From assembly GCF_000018105.1 (NCBI RefSeq), contig NC_009925.1, forward strand, positions 2,580,001-2,612,000: DNA of 32,000 nucleotides. Direction: 5' to 3'. This DNA is from Acaryochloris marina MBIC11017. Lineage in GTDB: Bacteria > Cyanobacteriota > Cyanobacteriia > Thermosynechococcales > Thermosynechococcaceae. The notes under the pieces are model-generated. The model was not told the origin of the DNA. It saw only the letters and a list, made by a program, of their open reading frames with translations, and made no database searches. The translations under genes and the position numbers were made by a program. Shown here in pieces: positions 6,075 through 29,338 of this stretch (its first letter is position 1; every line of letters begins with the position of its first letter).

Positions 6075-6632
6075 TTATGGAACAAGTGAAAATATAAAAT
6101 TCAGGCTGTTTTGAACTTGTTCAGCCGATAGAAACTGGTTAGCAGCAAAGAACTCATGGAGCTGTTGTTTGATCTGTGTCAGGGTCGTTCCAAGAGGGAG
6201 ATGGTGCAGACATCGTAAGCGTAGTAAGTGAATCACATATTCAACCAAGTTCAACTTGGGAGAGTAGGACGGCAAATATAAAAACTCAACTTGAATCGAT
6301 TGGGTGAGCCCCATCTGCTCTAGATGGATAGCGAGTTGGGAGCGCATCTTGCCCTTATGGGTCGGATTGTTATCGAGAATAAGGCACAGTTGAGTGTAGC
6401 CCAGCTCAACGCTATCCAGACATAGGTCTGCAAAGTACTCAGAGATATCTTCTGTTTTAGCCTGTGGGCTCAGAGCGAAATACTCTTCGCCACTGTGGGC
6501 ATCGACGCACAGTAACCCATTGAGCTTGTTGCGAGCCCGCTCATTACTCTTGACCTGTGGACGAGTGTTGCGTTCTGCCCAGCCATAGAACAACCTAGGA
6601 CGCTCAGACACCGCAAATTCGTCAAAGAACAA
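6075..6632 (-). CDS. IS630-family transposase, C-terminal DDE part (ORF B)
   Basis: Motifs LCLILDNNPTHKG and YLPSYSPKLNLVEY are typical of the DD(35)E catalytic domain of the IS630/Tc1-mariner group. The reading frame stays open upstream to the A7 run at 6663-6669. Confidence 0.8.
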   Translation of the reverse strand: MFFDEFAVSERPRLFYGWAERNTRPQVKSNERARNKLNGLLCVDAHSGEEYFALSPQAKTEDISEYFADLCLDSVELGYTQLCLILDNNPTHKGKMRSQLAIHLEQMGLTQSIQVEFLYLPSYSPKLNLVEYVIHLLRLRCLHHLPLGTTLTQIKQQLHEFFAANQFLSAEQVQNSLNFIFSLVP

Positions 6633-6639
6633 GATGCGC

Positions 6640-7173
6640 TCATCCGATTGTCGTGATTGCAGTTTTTTTAACAGCCGCCACCCACTCTTTCTGGGCGTTC
6701 AGGTCAGCATTCGCATAGTCACGATGGGCGCGTTGGTAAGATAACCCCAACTCTGATAGCAATTCGTAGATACGCGAATCTTTCAGCTGCACCTCGAAAC
6801 GCTGCTCAATCACAACGGCTAAAATTGCACCTGTCCACATATTGCGGTCAATACCATAGTCTGTCGGACGTTGCGTCAGAACCATCTCTTTGAGTTGTTG
6901 TTGTTCCTCTGGGCTCAACCGACTAGGTTTTTGATGTCGAATGGGTTGGACCAAGCCCTGGAGTCCACCATCGAGATATTTGTCCATCCAACGCGTTAAC
7001 GTATCATAGCTACACCCCACTTGTTCGCTCACTTGGGTACGACTGTGTCCTTCATTCAGCAATTTGATCGCGGTCAAGCGCTGTCGAATGTAGTGTTGTT
7101 GATTGCGGTAGTAGAATTTCTGCCACTCATCCGCATCAAAAGGCTTGTCCAGAAAGGCTTGTGTTCGATTCAA
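6640..7173 (-). CDS. IS630-family transposase, N-terminal DNA-binding part (ORF A)
   Basis: Helix-turn-helix segments are present (RLTAIKLLNEGHSRTQVSEQVGCSYDTLTRWMDKY; WTGAILAVVIEQRFEVQLKDSRIYELLSELGLSYQR). The ORF ends 8 nt before the first Met of ORF B, in a different frame. Confidence 0.8.
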   Translation of the reverse strand: MNRTQAFLDKPFDADEWQKFYYRNQQHYIRQRLTAIKLLNEGHSRTQVSEQVGCSYDTLTRWMDKYLDGGLQGLVQPIRHQKPSRLSPEEQQQLKEMVLTQRPTDYGIDRNMWTGAILAVVIEQRFEVQLKDSRIYELLSELGLSYQRAHRDYANADLNAQKEWVAAVKKTAITTIG

Positions 7174-14982: not shown

Positions 14983-15260
14983 TGTGAGCAGCAGAAAACA
15001 ACTCTTTAGATTATCACCTGGGACCGAACAATACGGATATATTAATTGAGATTGGCTTTTTTAATAAGAAATACTAATATTTATTTTTGCAAAACACCTC
15101 ATATTCAATTTAAAAATGTTATATTTGATACAGAAATTAAATCGTTCATCCCTTAACTCGTCTTTAACTCTATTCTTAGTAGTCAAGGGACGGAAGTAGA
15201 GCCTTCGCTCGAAGGAACGCGCCTCAAATCTATACCCATCATTATGATCGGAGGCGAATC

Positions 15261-15710
15261 ATGAAACTTACTTATCGCGGTGTTAATTACGACTACAATC
15301 CCCCTGCAGTAGACATGACTTCTAGTGAAGAAGTCGGTCAATATCGTGGATTGGAGTGGAGATTTAGAAACGCTCAAAAACCCCCGGTGATGCAACCCAG
15401 TCTTAACTTGGTTTACCGAGGCGTTGCCTATGAAACAGGCACCCCAGAGCCAGAAGTTGCACCCACCTATACCCCAGCACCTACCACACCTGTGGCTGCT
15501 CCTGCTATTTTGACCGTTCAAAATATGGCTCGGTCATTAATGACATCCCACCACCGCTGGATCAAAAACCGTCAGCAAGCCCTGCTCAGCCGCTCTGCCG
15601 CTGAAGTTGGCTTAAGTGCGGATGCGGCCCATTACTGGAATCATATTCAAGGCAAGGTCCATCCCAGCTTCCGTGGTAGCTATGATCGCTCCCATGCGGC
15701 CTTGAGCTAA
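15261..15710 (+). CDS. DUF4278 domain protein
   Basis: The N-terminus MKLTYRGVNYDYNPP and a second L.YRGV.Y motif are characteristic of the cyanobacterial DUF4278 family. A GGAGG-like RBS (cggaggcgaatcATG) precedes the start and a strong terminator follows the gene. Confidence 0.75.
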   Translation: MKLTYRGVNYDYNPPAVDMTSSEEVGQYRGLEWRFRNAQKPPVMQPSLNLVYRGVAYETGTPEPEVAPTYTPAPTTPVAAPAILTVQNMARSLMTSHHRWIKNRQQALLSRSAAEVGLSADAAHYWNHIQGKVHPSFRGSYDRSHAALS

Positions 15711-20537: not shown

Positions 20538-21491
20538 ATGATTATCATTGTTTCAAATCGTCGGGTGAACGAGGATCAAACCGATCACCGCTTGTTTGGA
20601 GAACGGGCGAATGTGAATGGTCTCGATGAAATTCGTTTAGCAACCGCTGACTACGATGAACCCTCACAACGGTGGCATCTATCCCTCGTTCCCGAAGGCG
20701 ATCTAGATGATGAAGACAGCCGCCCTAGCCACCAATTATTTCAGCGCGTTATGGCCGGGATTCAGGCCGGTCAGCATCAGAAAAACTGGGTGTTTTATAT
20801 TCACGGATTTAATCAATCCATGTTAGACAATCTCAATGCTTGTCGTGAAATCCAAACCCTCTATGACGTGGATGTCATTACCTTTGCATGGCCCTCGAAT
20901 CCAGGAGGGTTTGTGCTTGGCGAATATCAGCGCGCGCGACAGGCCGCTAGAGCATCCAGTAATGCCCTAGATCGCACCTTAGAACTGCTCGGGCGCTACC
21001 TAGCTAGCCGTTCCCTGGTAGAGATGCGGAACTGCCAGATTAGCCTAAATCTCCTCGTGCATAGCTTAGGCAATTATTTATTTGAGGATTTTGTCCGGGA
21101 TCCGGTCTTTAGTGATGAAACTCGCATCTTCGACAACATTATCTTTCACCAAGCGGATGCCGATAATCGCAACCATGCTCAATGGGTTGATCGCGTAGAG
21201 CATGGTCGCCGTATCTACATCACCCTCCATGAGGATGATTCAACCCTCAAAGCATCTGACATTATCAATCCAGGTCGCTTGGGCAATACCCTGGCCAATT
21301 TAAATGCCCAACGAGCAATCTATCTCGATTTTACGAATGGAGAGAATGTCGGCCGGTCCCATAACTTTTTTGATGGTCAGATTGAGAATGTCACCATCCA
21401 AACCATTTTTACCCGTCTACTCAATGGTCAGCGAGGAGAAACCGTAGCTGGCTTAAGCTTCGATCCAACCCTGAATGCTTTTCGGCTATAG
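20538..21491 (+). CDS. Alpha/beta hydrolase, DUF900-like (putative lipase/esterase)
   Basis: WVFYIHGFNQS (oxyanion region) and LLVHSLGNYL (nucleophile elbow; Ser codon at 21063-21065) match the DUF900-type alpha/beta hydrolase pattern. Length 317 aa, no signal peptide. Confidence 0.65.
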   Translation: MIIIVSNRRVNEDQTDHRLFGERANVNGLDEIRLATADYDEPSQRWHLSLVPEGDLDDEDSRPSHQLFQRVMAGIQAGQHQKNWVFYIHGFNQSMLDNLNACREIQTLYDVDVITFAWPSNPGGFVLGEYQRARQAARASSNALDRTLELLGRYLASRSLVEMRNCQISLNLLVHSLGNYLFEDFVRDPVFSDETRIFDNIIFHQADADNRNHAQWVDRVEHGRRIYITLHEDDSTLKASDIINPGRLGNTLANLNAQRAIYLDFTNGENVGRSHNFFDGQIENVTIQTIFTRLLNGQRGETVAGLSFDPTLNAFRL

Positions 21492-21583
21492 CCCCATGAT
21501 GTCGGTTTAGCCTCAGTGGGCTCATGACTCTGAACATTTCTGTGTGAGACCTGCATCGTTTTTGTCTTCTAGAGGAGGAATAT

Positions 21584-23335
21584 ATGTCTCGTAAACCATG
21601 GCACCAGCTTAAAACCCCCCTAGCCCTGATTAAGCTGCTCCAATTCCGAAATCGACTACGGGAAAATAATTTGCATGATACGGCTGCGATCGCACCCACA
21701 GATCACCTCCCCAAACCCAAGCCCAGTCCCGATGGTCGCCATTTTCGCGCCCGCACCGATGATGGCAGCTTTAACGATCTAGACCACCCTGAGATGGGAA
21801 TGGCTGGCACTCGGTTTGGTCGAAATGTGCCCTTGCAAGATGTCTATCCCGATGAGAAGGCTCTCTTAACGCCCAATCCGCGGGAGATTAGCCGTAAGGT
21901 GATGACTCGGGATGAGTTTATTCCCGCCACGATTTTGAATGTGCTAGCTGCCGCCTGGATCCAGTTTGAAAACCACGACTGGTTTTCCCATGGCGACAAC
22001 CAAACCAAACAGAAATTTCAGCTGCCCTTGGCGGACGATGATGACTGGCCTGCAGAGCATCGTCCCTTAGAGGTGGGTAAAACCGCCATTGATGAGACCC
22101 GCAAGGGAGATGAAAGCGGTGGTCCCCCCACCTTTATTAACACTGTCACCCACTGGTGGGATGGGTCTCAAATCTACGGCAGTGATAGCGCAACCGTTGC
22201 TAAACTCCGTTCCCATAAAGATGGCAAACTCACCATGGGAGACGATGGCCTATTGCCGTTAGATGATGGTGGCGTGGATTCCACTGGCTTTAACGATAAT
22301 TGGTGGGTGGGGCTGTCCTTACTGCATACGCTATTTGCCAAAGAGCATAATTTTATTTGCGATCGCCTCAAAGCGGAGTATCCATCCTGGTCCGATGACC
22401 AACTATTTGACCAAGCCCGCCTGATCAATGCTGCCTTAACCGCCAAAATCCACACGGCAGAATGGACCCCCGCCATTTTGCCCCTACCTGCCACCGATAT
22501 CGCCCTCAACGTCAACTGGGCAGGCTTCCTCGGGGAAGATTTTAGATATCTCTTTGGACATATCGGCGAAGGAGAACTGCTGAGCGGCATCCCAGGCTCC
22601 TCGACAGACCACCATACGGCCCCCTACTACCTAACGGAAGAATTTGTGTCCGTGTATCGGATGCATCCCCTAATCCCGGATGACTACCAATACTATGACC
22701 TGCAAGGAAAACTTCTGCAGGAGAGTGACTTTATGGCCTCTTCCGGCAAGCGGACCCGAGCCTTGGTGGAGGCGGTGGGGATGGACAATCTGTTCTACTC
22801 TTTGGGTATTACCCATCCAGGGGCCGTGACCCTCCATAACTTCCCTCGGTTTCTGCAGCTCCACAAGCGGGATAACGGGGAAGTCTTCGATCTAGCCGCC
22901 GTCGATATCCTCCGAGATCGCGAACGGGGAGTGCCTCGGTATAACCGCTTCCGAGAGTTAATCGGACGTAGCCGAGTTAAAAGTTTTGAGGAAATCACCA
23001 GCAATCCTGTTTGGGCCAAGGAACTACGGGAGGTCTATAACAACGACATCAACGCGGTTGATCTGATGGTAGGCATGTTTGCCGAAGATCTACCCGAAGG
23101 CTTTGGCTTTAGCGACACCGCCTTTCGCGTCTTTATCCTGATGGCCTCTCGCCGTCTGAAGAGCGATCGCTTCCTAAGCAAGGACTACCGCGCAGAAATT
23201 TATACCCCCTTCGGCTTGGAATGGATCTATCGCAACAATTTCATTACCCTCCTCAAACGTCACTACCCCAAACTGGCTCCTGCCCTAGTCGGCGTCAGCA
23301 ATGGCTTTGCCCCTTGGCGCAATCTTAGTCATTAG
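21584..23335 (+). CDS. Haem dioxygenase of the animal-peroxidase/cyclooxygenase superfamily (alpha-dioxygenase / linoleate dioxygenase-like)
   Basis: Motifs shared with plant alpha-DOX and COX are AAWIQFENHDWF (distal His, 21974-21976), THWWDGSQIYGS, LLHTLFAKEHNFICDRLK, IHTAEWTPAIL, FVSVYRMHPLIPD (Tyr 22655-22657 and proximal His 22664-22666, equivalent to YHWH in COX) and RERGVPRYNRFRE. A GGAGGA RBS lies 7 nt upstream of the ATG. Confidence 0.85.
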   Translation: MSRKPWHQLKTPLALIKLLQFRNRLRENNLHDTAAIAPTDHLPKPKPSPDGRHFRARTDDGSFNDLDHPEMGMAGTRFGRNVPLQDVYPDEKALLTPNPREISRKVMTRDEFIPATILNVLAAAWIQFENHDWFSHGDNQTKQKFQLPLADDDDWPAEHRPLEVGKTAIDETRKGDESGGPPTFINTVTHWWDGSQIYGSDSATVAKLRSHKDGKLTMGDDGLLPLDDGGVDSTGFNDNWWVGLSLLHTLFAKEHNFICDRLKAEYPSWSDDQLFDQARLINAALTAKIHTAEWTPAILPLPATDIALNVNWAGFLGEDFRYLFGHIGEGELLSGIPGSSTDHHTAPYYLTEEFVSVYRMHPLIPDDYQYYDLQGKLLQESDFMASSGKRTRALVEAVGMDNLFYSLGITHPGAVTLHNFPRFLQLHKRDNGEVFDLAAVDILRDRERGVPRYNRFRELIGRSRVKSFEEITSNPVWAKELREVYNNDINAVDLMVGMFAEDLPEGFGFSDTAFRVFILMASRRLKSDRFLSKDYRAEIYTPFGLEWIYRNNFITLLKRHYPKLAPALVGVSNGFAPWRNLSH

Positions 23336-23345
23336 GGCCTGTTCT

Positions 23346-24263
23346 ATGAAACACCAAACCGAAATCCAGCAATACTGGCCAGCAGCTCAGGACTTTGATC
23401 CGTTACCTGCAGACTATTCCAATTGGTCAGCGCAAAAAAAGCAGGCTTTTCTCTGGGATGAACGCATCCTCCAATCCACCTATGACCAAAACCCACCCAT
23501 TCCTCGGATCAATATTGTCGGGCTCATCTTGACCCCACTCATGATCAAAATGGATCGCCTGGAAGATGAAGCCCCCAGCCGTTGGCGCAAAGCTATCCAC
23601 CCCCATGGCGCTGTGGCCAAAATCAAGTTTGTCCCAGCGGGCGATAGTCCCTATACCGGACTGTTTAAAGGCGCAGACTATGGCTTGCTGAGGGCTTCTC
23701 TCACGGGCGATCCAGCAGATCGGGGATTTGCCCCTGGTCTAGCGATTAAGTTGCTGGCAGATGGCCAGCCTTCCGGCAACTTTTCTGCCCTCGTATCCCT
23801 CTCCGGTCAAGGCCAAAACTATAATTTCCTGGCTCATCGATTCTCCAATATTGTGCCTGTGGCTCAGGAGTTTGGCCCCCGATTCACGAACCTAATTTTT
23901 CGTCGGGTCACCAAATACCCTACCCGTATTGACCTTCAACACTTAGGTTCTACTACCCAGCAGGGTCAGGTCGAAGCACAGCCCCATACCCCCACCCAAG
24001 TCTTTCTCGTTCCCAATCCTGACCTGCAGTTTGCTGAAAGCCCCCATGACTTCCGAGCGGATCTGGCCCACATTCCCCCAGGTACCCAGTTGTTTTCTAT
24101 CTATGCAACGGATGCGGTCGATCCAGACGGGGAAACGATGACGGCTGGCGATCAACCTCAAGCCCAACTAATCGGACATTTGGAGACCACCTCCGAGTTT
24201 GTGGCTTCCTTCTACGGCGACAGTCAGCTCTTCTTTCGGCATCAGCGCTTCCGTAACCAGTAG
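23346..24263 (+). CDS. Small catalase-related haem protein (candidate fatty-acid hydroperoxide-transforming enzyme)
   Basis: RKAIHPHGAVAKIKF matches the catalase distal-His motif H-x-x-G-A-x-A-x-x-x-F (His codon 23598-23600). The C-terminal SFYGDSQLFFRHQR resembles the catalase proximal-Tyr motif FSY-x-D-T-Q-x-x-R (Tyr codon 24213-24215). At about 305 aa it is comparable to known ~33-kDa mini-catalases. It starts 10 nt after the dioxygenase stop. The track ORF start at 23301 overlaps the upstream gene and is unlikely to be real. Confidence 0.6.
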   Translation: MKHQTEIQQYWPAAQDFDPLPADYSNWSAQKKQAFLWDERILQSTYDQNPPIPRINIVGLILTPLMIKMDRLEDEAPSRWRKAIHPHGAVAKIKFVPAGDSPYTGLFKGADYGLLRASLTGDPADRGFAPGLAIKLLADGQPSGNFSALVSLSGQGQNYNFLAHRFSNIVPVAQEFGPRFTNLIFRRVTKYPTRIDLQHLGSTTQQGQVEAQPHTPTQVFLVPNPDLQFAESPHDFRADLAHIPPGTQLFSIYATDAVDPDGETMTAGDQPQAQLIGHLETTSEFVASFYGDSQLFFRHQRFRNQ

Positions 24264-24290: not shown

Positions 24291-25799
24291 ATGACCTCAG
24301 ACATTATCTTTCAGCCCTTAGAGTGGCGCAATCTAACGGTTAAAAATCGCATTTTCCGATCCAGCATCTCAGGGCGTTGGGATAACTACGATGGTTCGGG
24401 CACCCAAGCCCGGATCAATTGGGAAGAGCAGTTTGCCCAGGGTGGCGTCGGTGCCATTATCTCGTCCTATACCCCCATTCATATTGAAGGACGGATTGTG
24501 CCGAATGCTGCCATGATTGACTCGGACGACCGCATTCCCTTCTGGAAAAAGGTTGGCGAGACGGTTCATCAGCACGACTGCAAGTTTATCCTCCAGCTCA
24601 GCCATTCGGGGCGTCAGCGCGATATTGATGGGGTCGAAAATACCGTTCCCGATTCCTTTAAGCCCACACCTGCCCTGAGTGCAACGACCCTCTCAGAACA
24701 GATTCATGGGTTCCGCTGTCGCCAGATGACCCAGACAGAAATCCAGCAGACGGTACAAAGGTTTGCGGATGGGGCGCACCGGGCTCGGGAAGCTGGACTA
24801 GATGGCGTGGAATTACATAGCTCCCATGGCTATCTGATTACCCAATTCCTCAGTTCTGGCATCAATATTCGCAATGATGACTATGGGGGGTCTCTCGAAA
24901 ATCGATATCGGTTCCTGCAGGAAATTGTCCAGGCTATTCGCCAAACTGTCGGTGATGATTTTCATCTCCAGGCCAAGATTAGTGCCGTGGACTATAACAA
25001 TGTCTTGCCCTGGGAACGGAAGGGCAACACCCTATCTGAGTCCATTCAAGTCTGTCAGTGGCTCGAACGAGATGGGGTAGATGCTCTCCATATTTCTCGG
25101 GGCAGTACCTTTCCCCATCCCCTATTACCCGCAGGGCCTTTTCCCTTTAAGATTGCCACCTCCACCTACGACACGATGATTTCCAGTGCCCCGTGGCGCA
25201 CCCTCCTCAATTACTTTCTATTTCGCAGTCCCTTACTTCAGCCCTTTTTTAAGTGCATCTGGAATCGCTTGGAGCGGCATTGGCAGCCTCCCGTTAAAGG
25301 CGATCGTCTCTCGTCAGATTCTCTCTCCCACTTGATGCAAGAGCATATCTCTACCCATGAGTTTCAGGCCCTATTAGCCCGCTACCAAGGCACGGTTATG
25401 GAAGATGCCCAGGCCATTAAGGAACAGGTCAATATTCCTGTTATTTGCACCGGCGGCTTCCAGCAAGCCTCTTTTATCCGGCAAGCGATTGAGAAGGGAT
25501 TCTGTGATGGTGTTACCCTTGCCCGCCCGCTGGTCGCCAATAAGGATCTGGCCCACCAGTTTCAGGCAGGAAACGATATTCCCGAGCGACCTTGTACCTA
25601 TTGCAATCAATGCTTGGGGAGTTATCTGGAGTATCCCCTGGGCTGCTATGAACGCCGTCGATATTACCAGCGCTCTATTACTGGCGCAGATAAAGCGGAG
25701 CAAGATAAAGCGGCACGAGAAGCCCATGACGCCATGATTCAAGATGCTATGCGGGTTTATAGCCCACCGCCCTTTAGCCCGGCCGAGCAAACGGCATAA
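24291..25799 (+). CDS. Old Yellow Enzyme-family NADH:flavin oxidoreductase with a C-terminal 4Fe-4S-type Cys motif
   Basis: OYE/2,4-dienoyl-CoA-reductase-like motifs are present: LTVKNRIFRSS, ILQLSHSGRQ, AGLDGVELHSSHGYLITQFLS, RNDDYGGSLENRYRF and ICTGGF. A CxxCxxCx10C motif (CTYCNQCLGSYLEYPLGC, 25593-25646) is also present. At 502 aa, the protein has no C-terminal FAD/NAD(P)H domain. Confidence 0.8.
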   Translation: MTSDIIFQPLEWRNLTVKNRIFRSSISGRWDNYDGSGTQARINWEEQFAQGGVGAIISSYTPIHIEGRIVPNAAMIDSDDRIPFWKKVGETVHQHDCKFILQLSHSGRQRDIDGVENTVPDSFKPTPALSATTLSEQIHGFRCRQMTQTEIQQTVQRFADGAHRAREAGLDGVELHSSHGYLITQFLSSGINIRNDDYGGSLENRYRFLQEIVQAIRQTVGDDFHLQAKISAVDYNNVLPWERKGNTLSESIQVCQWLERDGVDALHISRGSTFPHPLLPAGPFPFKIATSTYDTMISSAPWRTLLNYFLFRSPLLQPFFKCIWNRLERHWQPPVKGDRLSSDSLSHLMQEHISTHEFQALLARYQGTVMEDAQAIKEQVNIPVICTGGFQQASFIRQAIEKGFCDGVTLARPLVANKDLAHQFQAGNDIPERPCTYCNQCLGSYLEYPLGCYERRRYYQRSITGADKAEQDKAAREAHDAMIQDAMRVYSPPPFSPAEQTA

Positions 25800-25831: not shown

Positions 25832-27328
25832 ATGAGCAGTACACCCTTTTTCCAGAAAGTCTGTCGTAACTTCAAGCGGTTAGCCCTAGGGCTGGTTAGC
25901 CTAGTTTTAGTGATCGTTTTATGTCTGGCATGGCCCCTATTGACGGCGCGGTCCCCTCAATACACGGACATTACCGACCATTTTAAGTATGGCTCGATTG
26001 GCGGTGCCTCCACCATGGGAATTCCCTATTGGATTTGGCAAGTGATGCCGGTGATGTTTCCGGAGTACCTACCCACTGAGGACTACGCTACCCCTGGGAC
26101 AGGCTATACCCAACTGGGCTTTATGCAGGAACCGGGGCAAGATCTGCCTATTGGGTTTGCCAAGGATACCCAATTAGGGTTGGAAGTGGTGACCAATAAC
26201 TGTGCCCTTTGCCATGTGGGTAGTATTCGCAACACCTCTGATGGCCTACCGCAAGCCATCCCGACGATGCCGTCTAACACTGTTAATTTGTCAGCCTATT
26301 TTCGATTTATTACTGGCGTTGCCGATGATCCTCGGTTTAATGCTCGGGAAATGATGCCCTATATCAAGGATTTGGGGGCCGATCTGAATCCCTTGCAGTC
26401 CCTGCTCTATCGCTATATTGCTATTCCCCAAACCCGGGCGTTACTCAGCATCCAAGCCGAGAAGCTCAGTTTCTTGTCGGATCAGCCCCAGTACGGTCCG
26501 GGGCGAGTAGACACCTTTACCCCTTATAAAACCCGCACCTTTAATATCAACCTAGATGACCTCCCGCCTGAAGAAATTGAAGGAGCAGCCAGCGACTTTC
26601 CCAGTGTTTGGCAGCAACGCCCCCGGGAAGGTATGCAGCTCCACTGGGATGGTGACAATACCTCCGTGGCGGAACGGAATAAGAGCGCTGCTTTAGCTCT
26701 GGTCTCCCCCACCAATATTAATTTGGATGCCATTACCCGAGTGGCCGACTGGTTGTTGGATCTCCCGGCTCCGCCCTATCCCTATCCCGTGAATGAGGAG
26801 CTGGCTGTCCAGGGGCAATCTATCTTTGCCAACACCTGTGCCAGCTGCCATGCCTTTGACGGTCCAAAGGTCGGAATCGTGACGCCCATTGCAGAAATCG
26901 GTACCGATCCAGGTCGCTTAAATTCTTATACCTATGAATTTGCCTCGAATCAGTACACGCTGTTTGCGGGGATTACCTATAAAGGCGAAGATCAGCGGTT
27001 TACTCACTTCCGCAAAACCCACGGCTATGCCAACCATCCCTTAGACGGATTGTGGTTGCGATCGCCTTATCTACACAACGGCTCAGTCCCGACCCTAGAG
27101 GATCTGCTCAATCCGCCTGAGCAACGCCCAGCTAAGTTTTATCGGGGTAATGATGTCTATGACCCAGACAAAGTGGGGTTTGTGGCAGATGTTGCCGCAG
27201 CCAACGGCAGCAAATTTTTCGAATATGATACGTCGCTGCCAGGGAATGGCAAGGAAGGCCATCTCTATGGAACCACTTTGTCTAAGTCAGACAAAACAGC
27301 TCTGATCGAGTATTTGAAGACCCTTTAA
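25832..27328 (+). CDS. Membrane-anchored di-haem c-type cytochrome, CCP/MauG-like C-terminal domain (paralog 1)
   Basis: It has an N-terminal TM (LALGLVSLVLVIVLCLAWPLL) and two CxxCH motifs (CALCH 26201-26215; CASCH 26837-26851). LWLRSPYLHNGSVPTLEDLL resembles the conserved (A/S)PY(F/M)HDGS..TLE motif of bacterial di-haem cytochrome c peroxidases. Confidence 0.7.
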   Translation: MSSTPFFQKVCRNFKRLALGLVSLVLVIVLCLAWPLLTARSPQYTDITDHFKYGSIGGASTMGIPYWIWQVMPVMFPEYLPTEDYATPGTGYTQLGFMQEPGQDLPIGFAKDTQLGLEVVTNNCALCHVGSIRNTSDGLPQAIPTMPSNTVNLSAYFRFITGVADDPRFNAREMMPYIKDLGADLNPLQSLLYRYIAIPQTRALLSIQAEKLSFLSDQPQYGPGRVDTFTPYKTRTFNINLDDLPPEEIEGAASDFPSVWQQRPREGMQLHWDGDNTSVAERNKSAALALVSPTNINLDAITRVADWLLDLPAPPYPYPVNEELAVQGQSIFANTCASCHAFDGPKVGIVTPIAEIGTDPGRLNSYTYEFASNQYTLFAGITYKGEDQRFTHFRKTHGYANHPLDGLWLRSPYLHNGSVPTLEDLLNPPEQRPAKFYRGNDVYDPDKVGFVADVAAANGSKFFEYDTSLPGNGKEGHLYGTTLSKSDKTALIEYLKTL

Positions 27329-27380: not shown

Positions 27381-27815
27381 GTGAGCACACAAAATCCCTA
27401 TGCAAAATGGTTTGGCTATGTCGTTTGGCTGGGCATCGCCGTCAATCTTCTATTTATTATTCCCATTTGTTTTTTCCCTGAATGGCTGCTTTCTCTCCTC
27501 AGGATGACTATTCCTATCCCGATTATTTGGGTGCGAGCGGCAGGGTTATTGCTCTTGGAAATTAGCATTCTGTATATTCCGGGAGCGCTGGATCCGTATC
27601 GATATCGAGCGACCGCATGGATGTCAGTTCTGGTCACCCGGGGTGGTGGAGCCTCGTTTTTCTTGATTGCCGTGCTGTTTTTTGGTCAAGAACTGGGCTT
27701 TCTTTCCATTGCCATTGTGGATCTAATTTTTGGGGTCACAGAGGGCATTCTGCTGTATTTAGCGATGCAAGACAAAACGGCTCTTGCAAACCAATCCTAT
27801 TCTGAGCCGGTCTAG
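27381..27815 (+). CDS. Small hypothetical 4-TM membrane protein
   Basis: 144-aa ORF with a GTG start, GGAG 8 nt upstream and four hydrophobic helices. It sits between the two di-haem paralogs on the same strand. Confidence 0.5.
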   Translation: MSTQNPYAKWFGYVVWLGIAVNLLFIIPICFFPEWLLSLLRMTIPIPIIWVRAAGLLLLEISILYIPGALDPYRYRATAWMSVLVTRGGGASFFLIAVLFFGQELGFLSIAIVDLIFGVTEGILLYLAMQDKTALANQSYSEPV

Positions 27816-27913: not shown

Positions 27914-29338
27914 ATGAAGACTATGCTTGGCAAAAAAATCGCCACCACCTTACTGATTCTGGGCCTGCTCGTGGGCACGGTGGTCTATATTGGCTGGTAC
28001 AATCTCCTGCGCGAAGTGGACACCTATATCGAATCGCCAGCCGAACATTTTAAGTATGGATCAATCGGGACAGAAAATGATCAAGGGGTTCCCTACTGGA
28101 TTTGGATGGTGCTCCCTCGCCTTTTTCCGGAATATTTACCCGGAACCAACGGCTATACTTCCTTGGGCTTTACCTGGGAACCCGGTCAGGAAACCCCGGT
28201 GGGCGTCTCTAAAAAAACGATTGGTTTTCCTCGCCAAGGCATTACCTGTGCCGTTTGCCATTCAGCAACCTATCGCAAAGCGCCTGAGGACAATCCCATC
28301 ATTGTGCCAGCTGGCCCCTCGGTCAAATTTAATTCCTTGGGCTATGTGCGCTTTTTGCAGGCTTGTGCCCAAGATCCCAGATTTACGGCAGACTACATTT
28401 TGCCTGAGATTGAATACAACCATTCCTTATCGGCTTTTGAGAAGTTACTCTACCGATTTCTGATTATTCCCACGACCCGCAAGGAAATGCTTGAGCAGGG
28501 CGAATCCTTTGCCTGGACCAATTCTCGACCCAATTGGGGACCGGGGCGTATCGATCCTTTTAACCCCGTGAAATTCAATATGCTAGCTATCCCCATAGAT
28601 GACACCATCGGCAACTCCGATATGATGTCGCTTTGGAATCAAAAGCAACATCAAGGATTTGCCCTGCACTGGGATGGTTTGGAAACCTCCCTCACAGAAA
28701 CGGTGAATACCGGTGCCTTGGGAGATGGAGCCACTCGTAAATCCATCAATATTGAAGGGCTACAACGGGTCGAAAAATATATCACAGAACTGGATCCACC
28801 CCAATTCCCTTTTGCCATCGATCAAGCTGCTGCCGCCAAGGGCGAAAAGGTATTTGACCAGCACTGTGCCACTTGCCATGCCTTTGGCGGTGAGCGCACG
28901 GGCACCGTTATCCCCCAGCAAGAAGTCGGCACCGATCGCCACCGACTGGACATGTGGACCCAAGAAGCAGCGGATAAATATAACGCCTTTGCGGAAGGGT
29001 ACGACTACGACTTTGACCAGTTACGGAAAACCGATGGCTATCTCTCCGTGAGCTTAGATGGGTTGTGGTTACGAGCCCCCTATCTGCACAATGGGTCAGT
29101 ACCTAGCTTGCAAGATTTACTCAAAACCCCAGATGCACGGACGCCAGTGTTTTACCGAGGCTACGATGTCTATGACCCCGACGCCGTCGGCTTTATTTCG
29201 CAAGGTGCGGAGGCTGAGAGGGTTGGATTTGAATACGACACATCCGTAGTGGAAAATAGTAATCAGGGGCATGTATACGGCACCAATTTACCTGACAAGG
29301 ATAAGGCGACATTAATTGAATATCTAAAAACCCTGTAA
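27914..29338 (+). CDS. Membrane-anchored di-haem c-type cytochrome, CCP/MauG-like (paralog 2)
   Basis: Collinear with 25832-27328. Shared blocks are HFKYGSIG, PYWIW, FPEYLP, GPGR(V/I)D, LHWDG, DGLWLR(S/A)PYLHNGSVP, FYRG.DVYDPD.VGF and LIEYLKTL. CxxCH motifs are CAVCH (28247-28261) and CATCH (28865-28879). ATG at 27923 has better spacing from AAGGA than the track start at 27914. Confidence 0.7.
   Translation: MKTMLGKKIATTLLILGLLVGTVVYIGWYNLLREVDTYIESPAEHFKYGSIGTENDQGVPYWIWMVLPRLFPEYLPGTNGYTSLGFTWEPGQETPVGVSKKTIGFPRQGITCAVCHSATYRKAPEDNPIIVPAGPSVKFNSLGYVRFLQACAQDPRFTADYILPEIEYNHSLSAFEKLLYRFLIIPTTRKEMLEQGESFAWTNSRPNWGPGRIDPFNPVKFNMLAIPIDDTIGNSDMMSLWNQKQHQGFALHWDGLETSLTETVNTGALGDGATRKSINIEGLQRVEKYITELDPPQFPFAIDQAAAAKGEKVFDQHCATCHAFGGERTGTVIPQQEVGTDRHRLDMWTQEAADKYNAFAEGYDYDFDQLRKTDGYLSVSLDGLWLRAPYLHNGSVPSLQDLLKTPDARTPVFYRGYDVYDPDAVGFISQGAEAERVGFEYDTSVVENSNQGHVYGTNLPDKDKATLIEYLKTL

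Follow-up and report, generated by a model that had tools for sequence, protein, structure and literature searches.

The DNA considered here is a stretch of 32,000 nucleotides from Acaryochloris marina MBIC11017 (NC_009925.1, positions 2,580,001 to 2,612,000), referred to as the window; positions below are counted from its first letter. At 21584-23335 it carries a gene for a haem protein, called DOX in what follows, that is predicted with good confidence to be a cytoplasmic fatty-acid alpha-dioxygenase. An earlier note on this sequence had recognized a cyclooxygenase (COX)-like active site in the protein and had taken it for a dioxygenase rather than a simple peroxidase. The gene and its functional codons are listed below with the matching residues of the rice enzyme and of COX; the conservation counts refer to 82 bacterial homologues taken from genomes across many phyla.

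21574-21578, + strand: GGAGG ribosome-binding site, 5 nt ahead of the DOX ATG, as read from the sequence
21584-23335, + strand: alpha-DOX open reading frame, 583 amino acids, peroxidase-cyclooxygenase superfamily; ATG start, frame intact
21974-21976, + strand: codon of the distal haem His131 (FENHDWF; ENHDW is residues 129-133), rice His157, aligned on the COX distal His; 82/82
22451-22453, + strand: codon of the carboxylate-binding His290, rice His311, Val in COX-2; 81/82
22466-22468, + strand: codon of Thr295, which positions the alpha-carbon, rice Thr316, Val in COX-2; 82/82
22655-22657, + strand: TAT codon of the radical-forming catalytic Tyr358, rice Tyr379 and COX Tyr385; 82/82
22664-22666, + strand: CAT codon of the proximal haem ligand His361, rice His382 and COX His388; 82/82
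23150-23155, + strand: codons of the carboxylate anchor Arg523-Arg524, rice Arg558/Arg559, Lys and Gly in COX-2; 82/82

DOX has the animal-haem-peroxidase fold, with a match strength far beyond chance. The Pfam family An_peroxidase (PF03098) covers residues 57-564 with E=1e-113. Homology to the plant alpha-dioxygenases (rice 4KVJ/4KVK, Arabidopsis 4HHR/4HHS) runs over the full length at 38% identity: rice 4KVJ matches with E=2.2e-114 (query residues 3-578 on chain residues 41-617) and Arabidopsis 4HHR end to end with E=2.6e-103. In contrast, COX-1/2 and the true peroxidases give local matches only (phmmer E~1e-16 for COX, 1e-8 for myeloperoxidase and 4e-28 for lactoperoxidase). The protein is 99% identical to one of Acaryochloris sp. 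CCMEE 5410 that bears the database label 'peroxidase family protein', a label that the alpha-dioxygenase assignment corrects. Two antisense open reading frames lie inside or overlap the gene (92 amino acids at 21421-21699 and 138 amino acids at 22174-22590, both on the - strand) and are probably there by chance.

The motif FVSVYRMHPLIPD (residues 354-366, nucleotides 22643-22681) is the segment that the earlier note had lined up with a COX motif, and both alignment methods bear this out. In a BLASTP comparison with human COX-2 (E=1e-19; 386 columns at 25% identity; the COX-2 query sequence was confirmed against PDB 5F1A and others), EFVSVYRMHPLIPDDYQ falls on EFNTLYHWHPLLPDTFQ. The MAFFT alignment agrees and sets DOX Gln127/His131 on the Gln/His of the COX sequence QHFTH. 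The codon proposed for the radical Tyr was exact, with the proximal His three residues on; the Tyr358/His361 pair is homologous to COX Tyr385/His388, and the distal His expected in ENHDW is present as His131, aligned with both rice His157 and the COX distal His. The Tyr358 column is also one in which PDB 4KVJ (Tyr) and 4KVL (Phe) differ. DOX does not belong with COX itself: Phe517 falls on COX Gly526 (MAFFT) and Ala521 on Ser530 (BLASTP), and the similarity is local only.

It is the substrate site that ties DOX to the alpha-dioxygenases. After correction of the chain numbering by an offset of +3 to assign the rice residue numbers, 16 of the 18 rice alpha-DOX catalytic, haem and substrate-channel residues were found to be identical in DOX. 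They include rice His311, Thr316, Arg558 and Arg559 as well as a pair of Phe stacked on the Tyr. The two positions that differ are Thr304 and Val310 in DOX, and these are the residues given for LepDOX of Leptolyngbya sp. (PMC8720084). Conservation across the homologues is nearly complete for both groups of residues: all 82 keep the Tyr, both His and the Gln, and each of the residues specific to alpha-DOX (His, Thr and two Arg) is found in 81 or 82 of them.

Among deposited proteins, DOX matches an 'alpha-dioxygenase [synthetic construct]' (USU85610.1) with 70% identity across 582 residues. This construct shares a 90% cluster with a haem peroxidase of Crocosphaera subtropica ATCC 51142, the organism from which CsDOX was taken; the use of that enzyme is described in PMC9468042. 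Identity to CalDOX (Calothrix parietina), which was identified in the Calothrix PCC 6303 genome by matching peptides encoded by the published synthetic gene and by the residue numbers of the paper, is 66%. Identities obtained by tblastn from the published CalDOX and LepDOX gene sequences were discarded, as the machine-read DNA was full of frameshifts. In a distance (neighbour-joining) tree, DOX groups with the characterised alpha-dioxygenases, inside a cyanobacterial clade where CsDOX and CalDOX bracket it; the bacterial sequences together have rice alpha-DOX as their sister, and COX-2 stands far outside on a long branch. CsDOX, CalDOX and LepDOX share with DOX the family and clade, the length, the numbering (His131, His361) and the catalytic and substrate residues. 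The rice Tyr379 column, the COX-2 alignment and the dioxygenase activity of every close relative so far characterised favour the earlier view of a dioxygenase over a simple peroxidase.

The same note had held that regiospecificity could not be read from the sequence, which was too cautious. Clade membership and the conserved carboxylate anchor (His290 and Arg524), together with Thr295, clearly indicate C2, so that alpha-oxygenation is predicted, and the published signatures of the Nostoc 10S-DOX are absent. Characterised cyanobacterial alpha-dioxygenases prefer C10-C14 acids and the plant enzymes long-chain ones (PMC8720084); since the cyanobacterial enzymes prefer it, the C10-C14 range would be expected for DOX as well.

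To our knowledge, the only other characterised cyanobacterial haem dioxygenase is the 10S-DOX of Nostoc punctiforme, of the same superfamily and a different clade. That enzyme has 542 residues, is ~31% identical to COX, uses Tyr342, has a distal helix with FTDSF and no His, and carries an end motif GRxxSxIPAxxARxIGxDA (PMC13049297). DOX, with 583 residues, FENHDWF and FRVFILMASRRLKSDRF, is distinguished from it by this published description.

DOX is followed closely by further genes on the same strand, and one hydrolase gene precedes it:

20538-21491, + strand: DUF900 alpha/beta-hydrolase, a possible lipase, ahead of DOX (Pfam PF05990, E=3e-12)
23346-24263, + strand: partner gene, 305 amino acids, from a large family that lacks annotation; possible remote catalase-related (cAOS-like) fold (from fusions, model and Foldseek)
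24291-25799, + strand: old-yellow-enzyme (OYE)-type flavin ene-reductase, 502 amino acids, C-terminal Cx2Cx2Cx11C (Pfam Oxidored_FMN, E=7e-64)
25832-27328, + strand: di-haem c-type cytochrome 1, RoxA/FadCcp-like, with an N-terminal membrane anchor (CALCH124, CASCH336, PYLHNGSVP412; NF040606, 185.8 bits)
27381-27815, + strand: small hydrophobic protein, 144 amino acids (from co-occurrence with the cytochrome pair)
27914-29338, + strand: di-haem c-type cytochrome 2, membrane-anchored (CAVCH112, CATCH318, PYLHNGSVP389; NF040606, 168.7 bits)

The gaps between these genes are 92 nt from the hydrolase to DOX, 10 nt from DOX to the 305-residue partner, 27 nt from the partner to the ene-reductase, 32 nt from there to cytochrome 1, 52 nt from cytochrome 1 to the 144-residue membrane protein and 98 nt from that protein to cytochrome 2; the next gene follows after 542 nt. 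From this tight spacing on one strand, DOX, the partner, the ene-reductase and the two cytochromes are predicted to form an operon. A scan for consensus promoters and terminators was uninformative on its boundaries, with fewer promoter-like sites than in shuffled controls and terminator-like matches that were internal only. By synteny, the linkage of the DUF900 hydrolase to DOX is confined to Acaryochloris-like loci. Lipolytic genes of differing families are found near DOX: the DUF900 gene in the window, an esterase in locus L004 and a PLD-like gene in locus L092.

The family of the partner counts 2,124 representative clusters at E<=1e-3, and the protein gave no match in Pfam (E<=10), in NCBIfam or to any PDB sequence. 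A start at the in-frame ATG at 23301 would add 23301-23345 and give 320 amino acids, with a 35-nt overlap with the DOX stop; gene callers on related contigs are split between 305 and 320 residues, and homologues start at the position of 23346. The association with DOX is strongly indicated by natural fusions. For example, in a protein of 919 residues (P0263) an alpha-DOX-type domain, 43% identical to DOX and with all key motifs kept, runs straight into a C-terminal partner domain, and this fusion occurs in several complete genomes of Thalassolituus oleivorans. A second fusion (P0278, 1,356 residues) has the same domain order. As separate genes, DOX and the partner are found together in 9 of ~25 cyanobacterial species loci. 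The two are adjacent in 2 of the 4 distant members sampled, one of which is 41% identical to the window protein in DOX and 36% in the partner. The CalDOX locus also holds a member of the partner family. Fusion, together with adjacency conserved at this divergence, is strong evidence from sequence comparison that the two proteins act together.

A model of the partner built from 30 close homologues reached a pLDDT of 74 and had no meaningful fold matches. With an alignment of 109 sequences the model improved to a pLDDT of 94.2 and a pTM of 0.92, and the top Foldseek matches were 3DY5 (E=1.2e-3, probability 0.91), a catalase-related allene oxide synthase from coral, and 3E4W (E=4.1e-3, probability 0.96), the 33-kDa catalase-related protein of M. 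avium (MAP-2744c). TM-scores were low, ~0.35, and at that level the modelled likeness to a catalase fold is suggestive only. The next match had a probability of 0.07, and the top 50 held no ordinary catalase. One UniRef cluster of the partner family carries the name 'Catalase'.

Sequence methods gave no such likeness. Comparison with human catalase by hhalign, with shallow and deep profiles, returned probabilities of 0.04-0.14%, and PDB profile searches with the partner found no catalase. The only candidate for a proximal Tyr, Tyr290, which may correspond to the catalase Tyr, is not conserved: of 109 family members, 62 have Tyr, 33 Phe and 13 Trp at this position, and the Thalassolituus fusion also carries Phe. 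A motif-based proposal of a catalase-related haem protein failed all sequence tests and was retained only as a weak likeness at the level of the fold. The partner may be a very divergent catalase-fold enzyme that acts on the hydroperoxide made by DOX, a suggestion we hold at somewhat under even confidence; a lipid carrier is the main alternative.

Pairs of this general kind are known from other dioxygenases. In Nostoc, the 10S-DOX gene is followed by that of a catalase-related 10S-hydroperoxide lyase, which consumes the hydroperoxide (Brash et al. 2014, as described in PMC13049297). The logic of the gene pair is common to both loci, and the partner in the window lacks catalase similarity at the sequence level; orthology with the Nostoc pair was rejected from the published descriptors. 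Coral AOS-LOX (3DY5; allene oxide synthase-lipoxygenase), the catalase-lipoxygenase fusion of Acaryochloris and the fungal DOX-CYP proteins (Ppo/LDS) join a dioxygenase to a domain that transforms its hydroperoxide, the layout seen in the Thalassolituus fusion. Unlike these proteins, the Thalassolituus fusion has an alpha-DOX-type dioxygenase and a C-terminal partner domain, in which the position of the catalase-type proximal Tyr is variable. The literature was searched for partners of alpha-DOX and for gene clusters containing it, with nothing relevant returned, and for the plant alpha-dioxygenases in particular no paper on a dedicated partner protein was found.

The two downstream cytochromes are paralogues, 42% identical. 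Both pass the 150-bit cut-off of the NCBIfam di-haem peroxidase model NF040606 and match Pfam RoxA-like_Cyt-c. In Pseudomonas aeruginosa, PA2077/PA2078 (FadCcp) are a di-haem pair of fatty-acid 10S-dioxygenase and 7,10-diol synthase (PMC4496055). The window cytochromes resemble these and the rubber oxygenase RoxA in being tandem paralogues with two CXXCH motifs and a MauG-type PYxHNGSVP motif, a similarity shown for the C-terminal part only, and they are shorter (474-498 residues vs ~625-635 for PA2077/PA2078/RoxA). The ene-reductase matches YqjM-type structures and the N-domain of FadH with E=1e-36 to 1e-40. Its CTYCNQC...C motif resembles the Fe-S site of FadH/TMADH, whose NADPH/FAD domains are absent from it.

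The wider neighbourhood recurs in distant bacteria. Within 10 kb of DOX, an OYE-type gene is present in ~21 of 80 species loci, spread over several phyla, and a RoxA-like cytochrome in ~13 of those loci; loci with the cytochrome include Chloroflexota, Acidobacteriota, Verrucomicrobiae and Actinomycetes. The characterised relatives are placed differently. CsDOX is without the partner, ene-reductase and di-haem cytochrome neighbours that DOX has in the window. CalDOX shares the partner, accompanied by a GMC oxidoreductase and a patatin-like lipase where DOX has the ene-reductase and the di-haem cytochromes. The CalDOX gene (locus L088, Calothrix sp. PCC 6303, CP003611.1) sits on an 80.8-kb replicon, beside an insertion sequence (IS) remnant, the partner-family member, the GMC oxidoreductase and the patatin-like lipase. 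In Synechococcus sp. PCC 7336 (locus L005, 1-7717), a partner, an ene-reductase, two RoxA-like cytochromes and a small protein lie divergent from DOX, and a lipoxygenase stands at the end. This arrangement may mean that fatty-acid dioxygenases of different kinds are served by the module.

These surroundings bear on a rival reading, that of a different product. DOX could have the alpha-DOX fold and act in vivo with another regiospecificity or on another class of substrate, for example at mid-chain carbons of unsaturated fatty acids, like the Nostoc 10S-DOX, or on an acyl compound that is not a free fatty acid, with the partners processing what it makes. An operon with a partner resembling hydroperoxide enzymes, an ene-reductase and two RoxA/FadCcp-like cytochromes looks more like a pathway for unsaturated oxylipins than simple alpha-oxidation, and in PCC 7336 the same module terminates in a lipoxygenase. 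Against mid-chain chemistry, the published 10S-DOX signatures are missing from DOX, the carboxylate anchor that places C2 beside the Tyr is fully conserved, and CalDOX, a proven alpha-dioxygenase, is accompanied by the same partner gene (PMC8720084). We regard this reading as unlikely. The names attached to the protein invite another, that of an ordinary haem peroxidase reducing peroxide without oxygenase activity: the Pfam family is called 'animal haem peroxidase', the database label is 'peroxidase family protein', and the distal Gln/His pair is kept. The search scores run the other way, E=4e-28 for lactoperoxidase and 1e-8 for myeloperoxidase vs 2.2e-114 for alpha-DOX, the catalytic Tyr is invariant and the anchor of the fatty-acid carboxylate nearly so, and the characterised close relatives are all oxygenases; an ordinary peroxidase is very improbable. 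For a decaying or nonfunctional gene copy no supporting point was found, and with an intact frame, a good ribosome-binding site, 99% identity in CCMEE 5410 and all functional residues kept, decay hardly comes into consideration.

Some points nevertheless weigh against the assignment of DOX as an alpha-dioxygenase of medium-chain acids. USU85610.1 is equated with the CsDOX construct of the papers by name and cluster only, with no accession match stated, and the distance tree carries no support values. Relatives at 66-70% identity are the basis on which regiospecificity and chain-length preference are predicted. With a conserved partner and redox enzymes downstream, the physiological product may differ from the simple aldehyde formed in vitro.

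If DOX is an alpha-dioxygenase, the steps of its reaction can be proposed by homology with the rice and Arabidopsis enzymes. The ferric haem, with His361 as ligand and His131 on the distal side, would be oxidised by peroxide and would in turn convert Tyr358 to a tyrosyl radical. A free fatty acid would be held by its carboxylate at His290 and Arg524, with C2 placed by Thr295. The Tyr358 radical would take the C2 hydrogen, O2 would add, and the resulting peroxyl radical would regain a hydrogen from Tyr358. The reaction is expected to yield a 2(R)-hydroperoxy fatty acid, and this would either break down to CO2 and the one-carbon-shorter (Cn-1) aldehyde or undergo reduction to a 2-hydroxy acid. 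If DOX behaves like CsDOX, CalDOX and LepDOX, its preferred substrates are likely to be medium-chain saturated acids, C10-C14. Judging from the fusions and synteny, the product is probably passed to the co-transcribed 305-residue partner.

As an enzyme DOX is ordinary. It adds an Acaryochloris member to a characterised family already used as a source of fatty-aldehyde biocatalysts, and the gain is small. Less ordinary is its operon with an uncharacterised partner that is fused to the same type of enzyme in other bacteria. The 2-hydroperoxide of alpha-dioxygenases is generally regarded as decaying spontaneously. If the partner is a true one, linked to DOX at 36-41% identity and fused to it in another phylum, the cell would control this step. 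A tentative wider proposal, for which we would not claim an even chance, is that bacterial alpha-dioxygenases do not act on their own and are coupled to an extremely divergent catalase-fold partner, so far unrecognised, that takes up the unstable 2-hydroperoxide and steers its fate, and that this pair, together with an Fe-S-type ene-reductase and di-haem oxygenases like RoxA/FadCcp, makes up an undescribed oxylipin or alpha-oxidation pathway in many phyla. The coupling of DOX to the partner and the cross-phylum neighbourhood of DOX, ene-reductase and di-haem proteins appear not to have been described before, and they are the main interest of the locus. A function for the partner family, with its >2,000 unannotated representative clusters, would annotate many genomes.

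Elsewhere in the window, a glutamine riboswitch (Rfam RF01739, 51.5 bits, E=1e-8) is found at 15141-15223 on the + strand, just upstream of a 149-residue open reading frame (15261-15710) that is labelled DUF4278 in the gene tables of related contigs. A transposase at 6075-7173 on the - strand is split into a helix-turn-helix part (6640-7173) and a DDE_3 part (6075-6632), and is probably a frameshifted element of the IS630 type.

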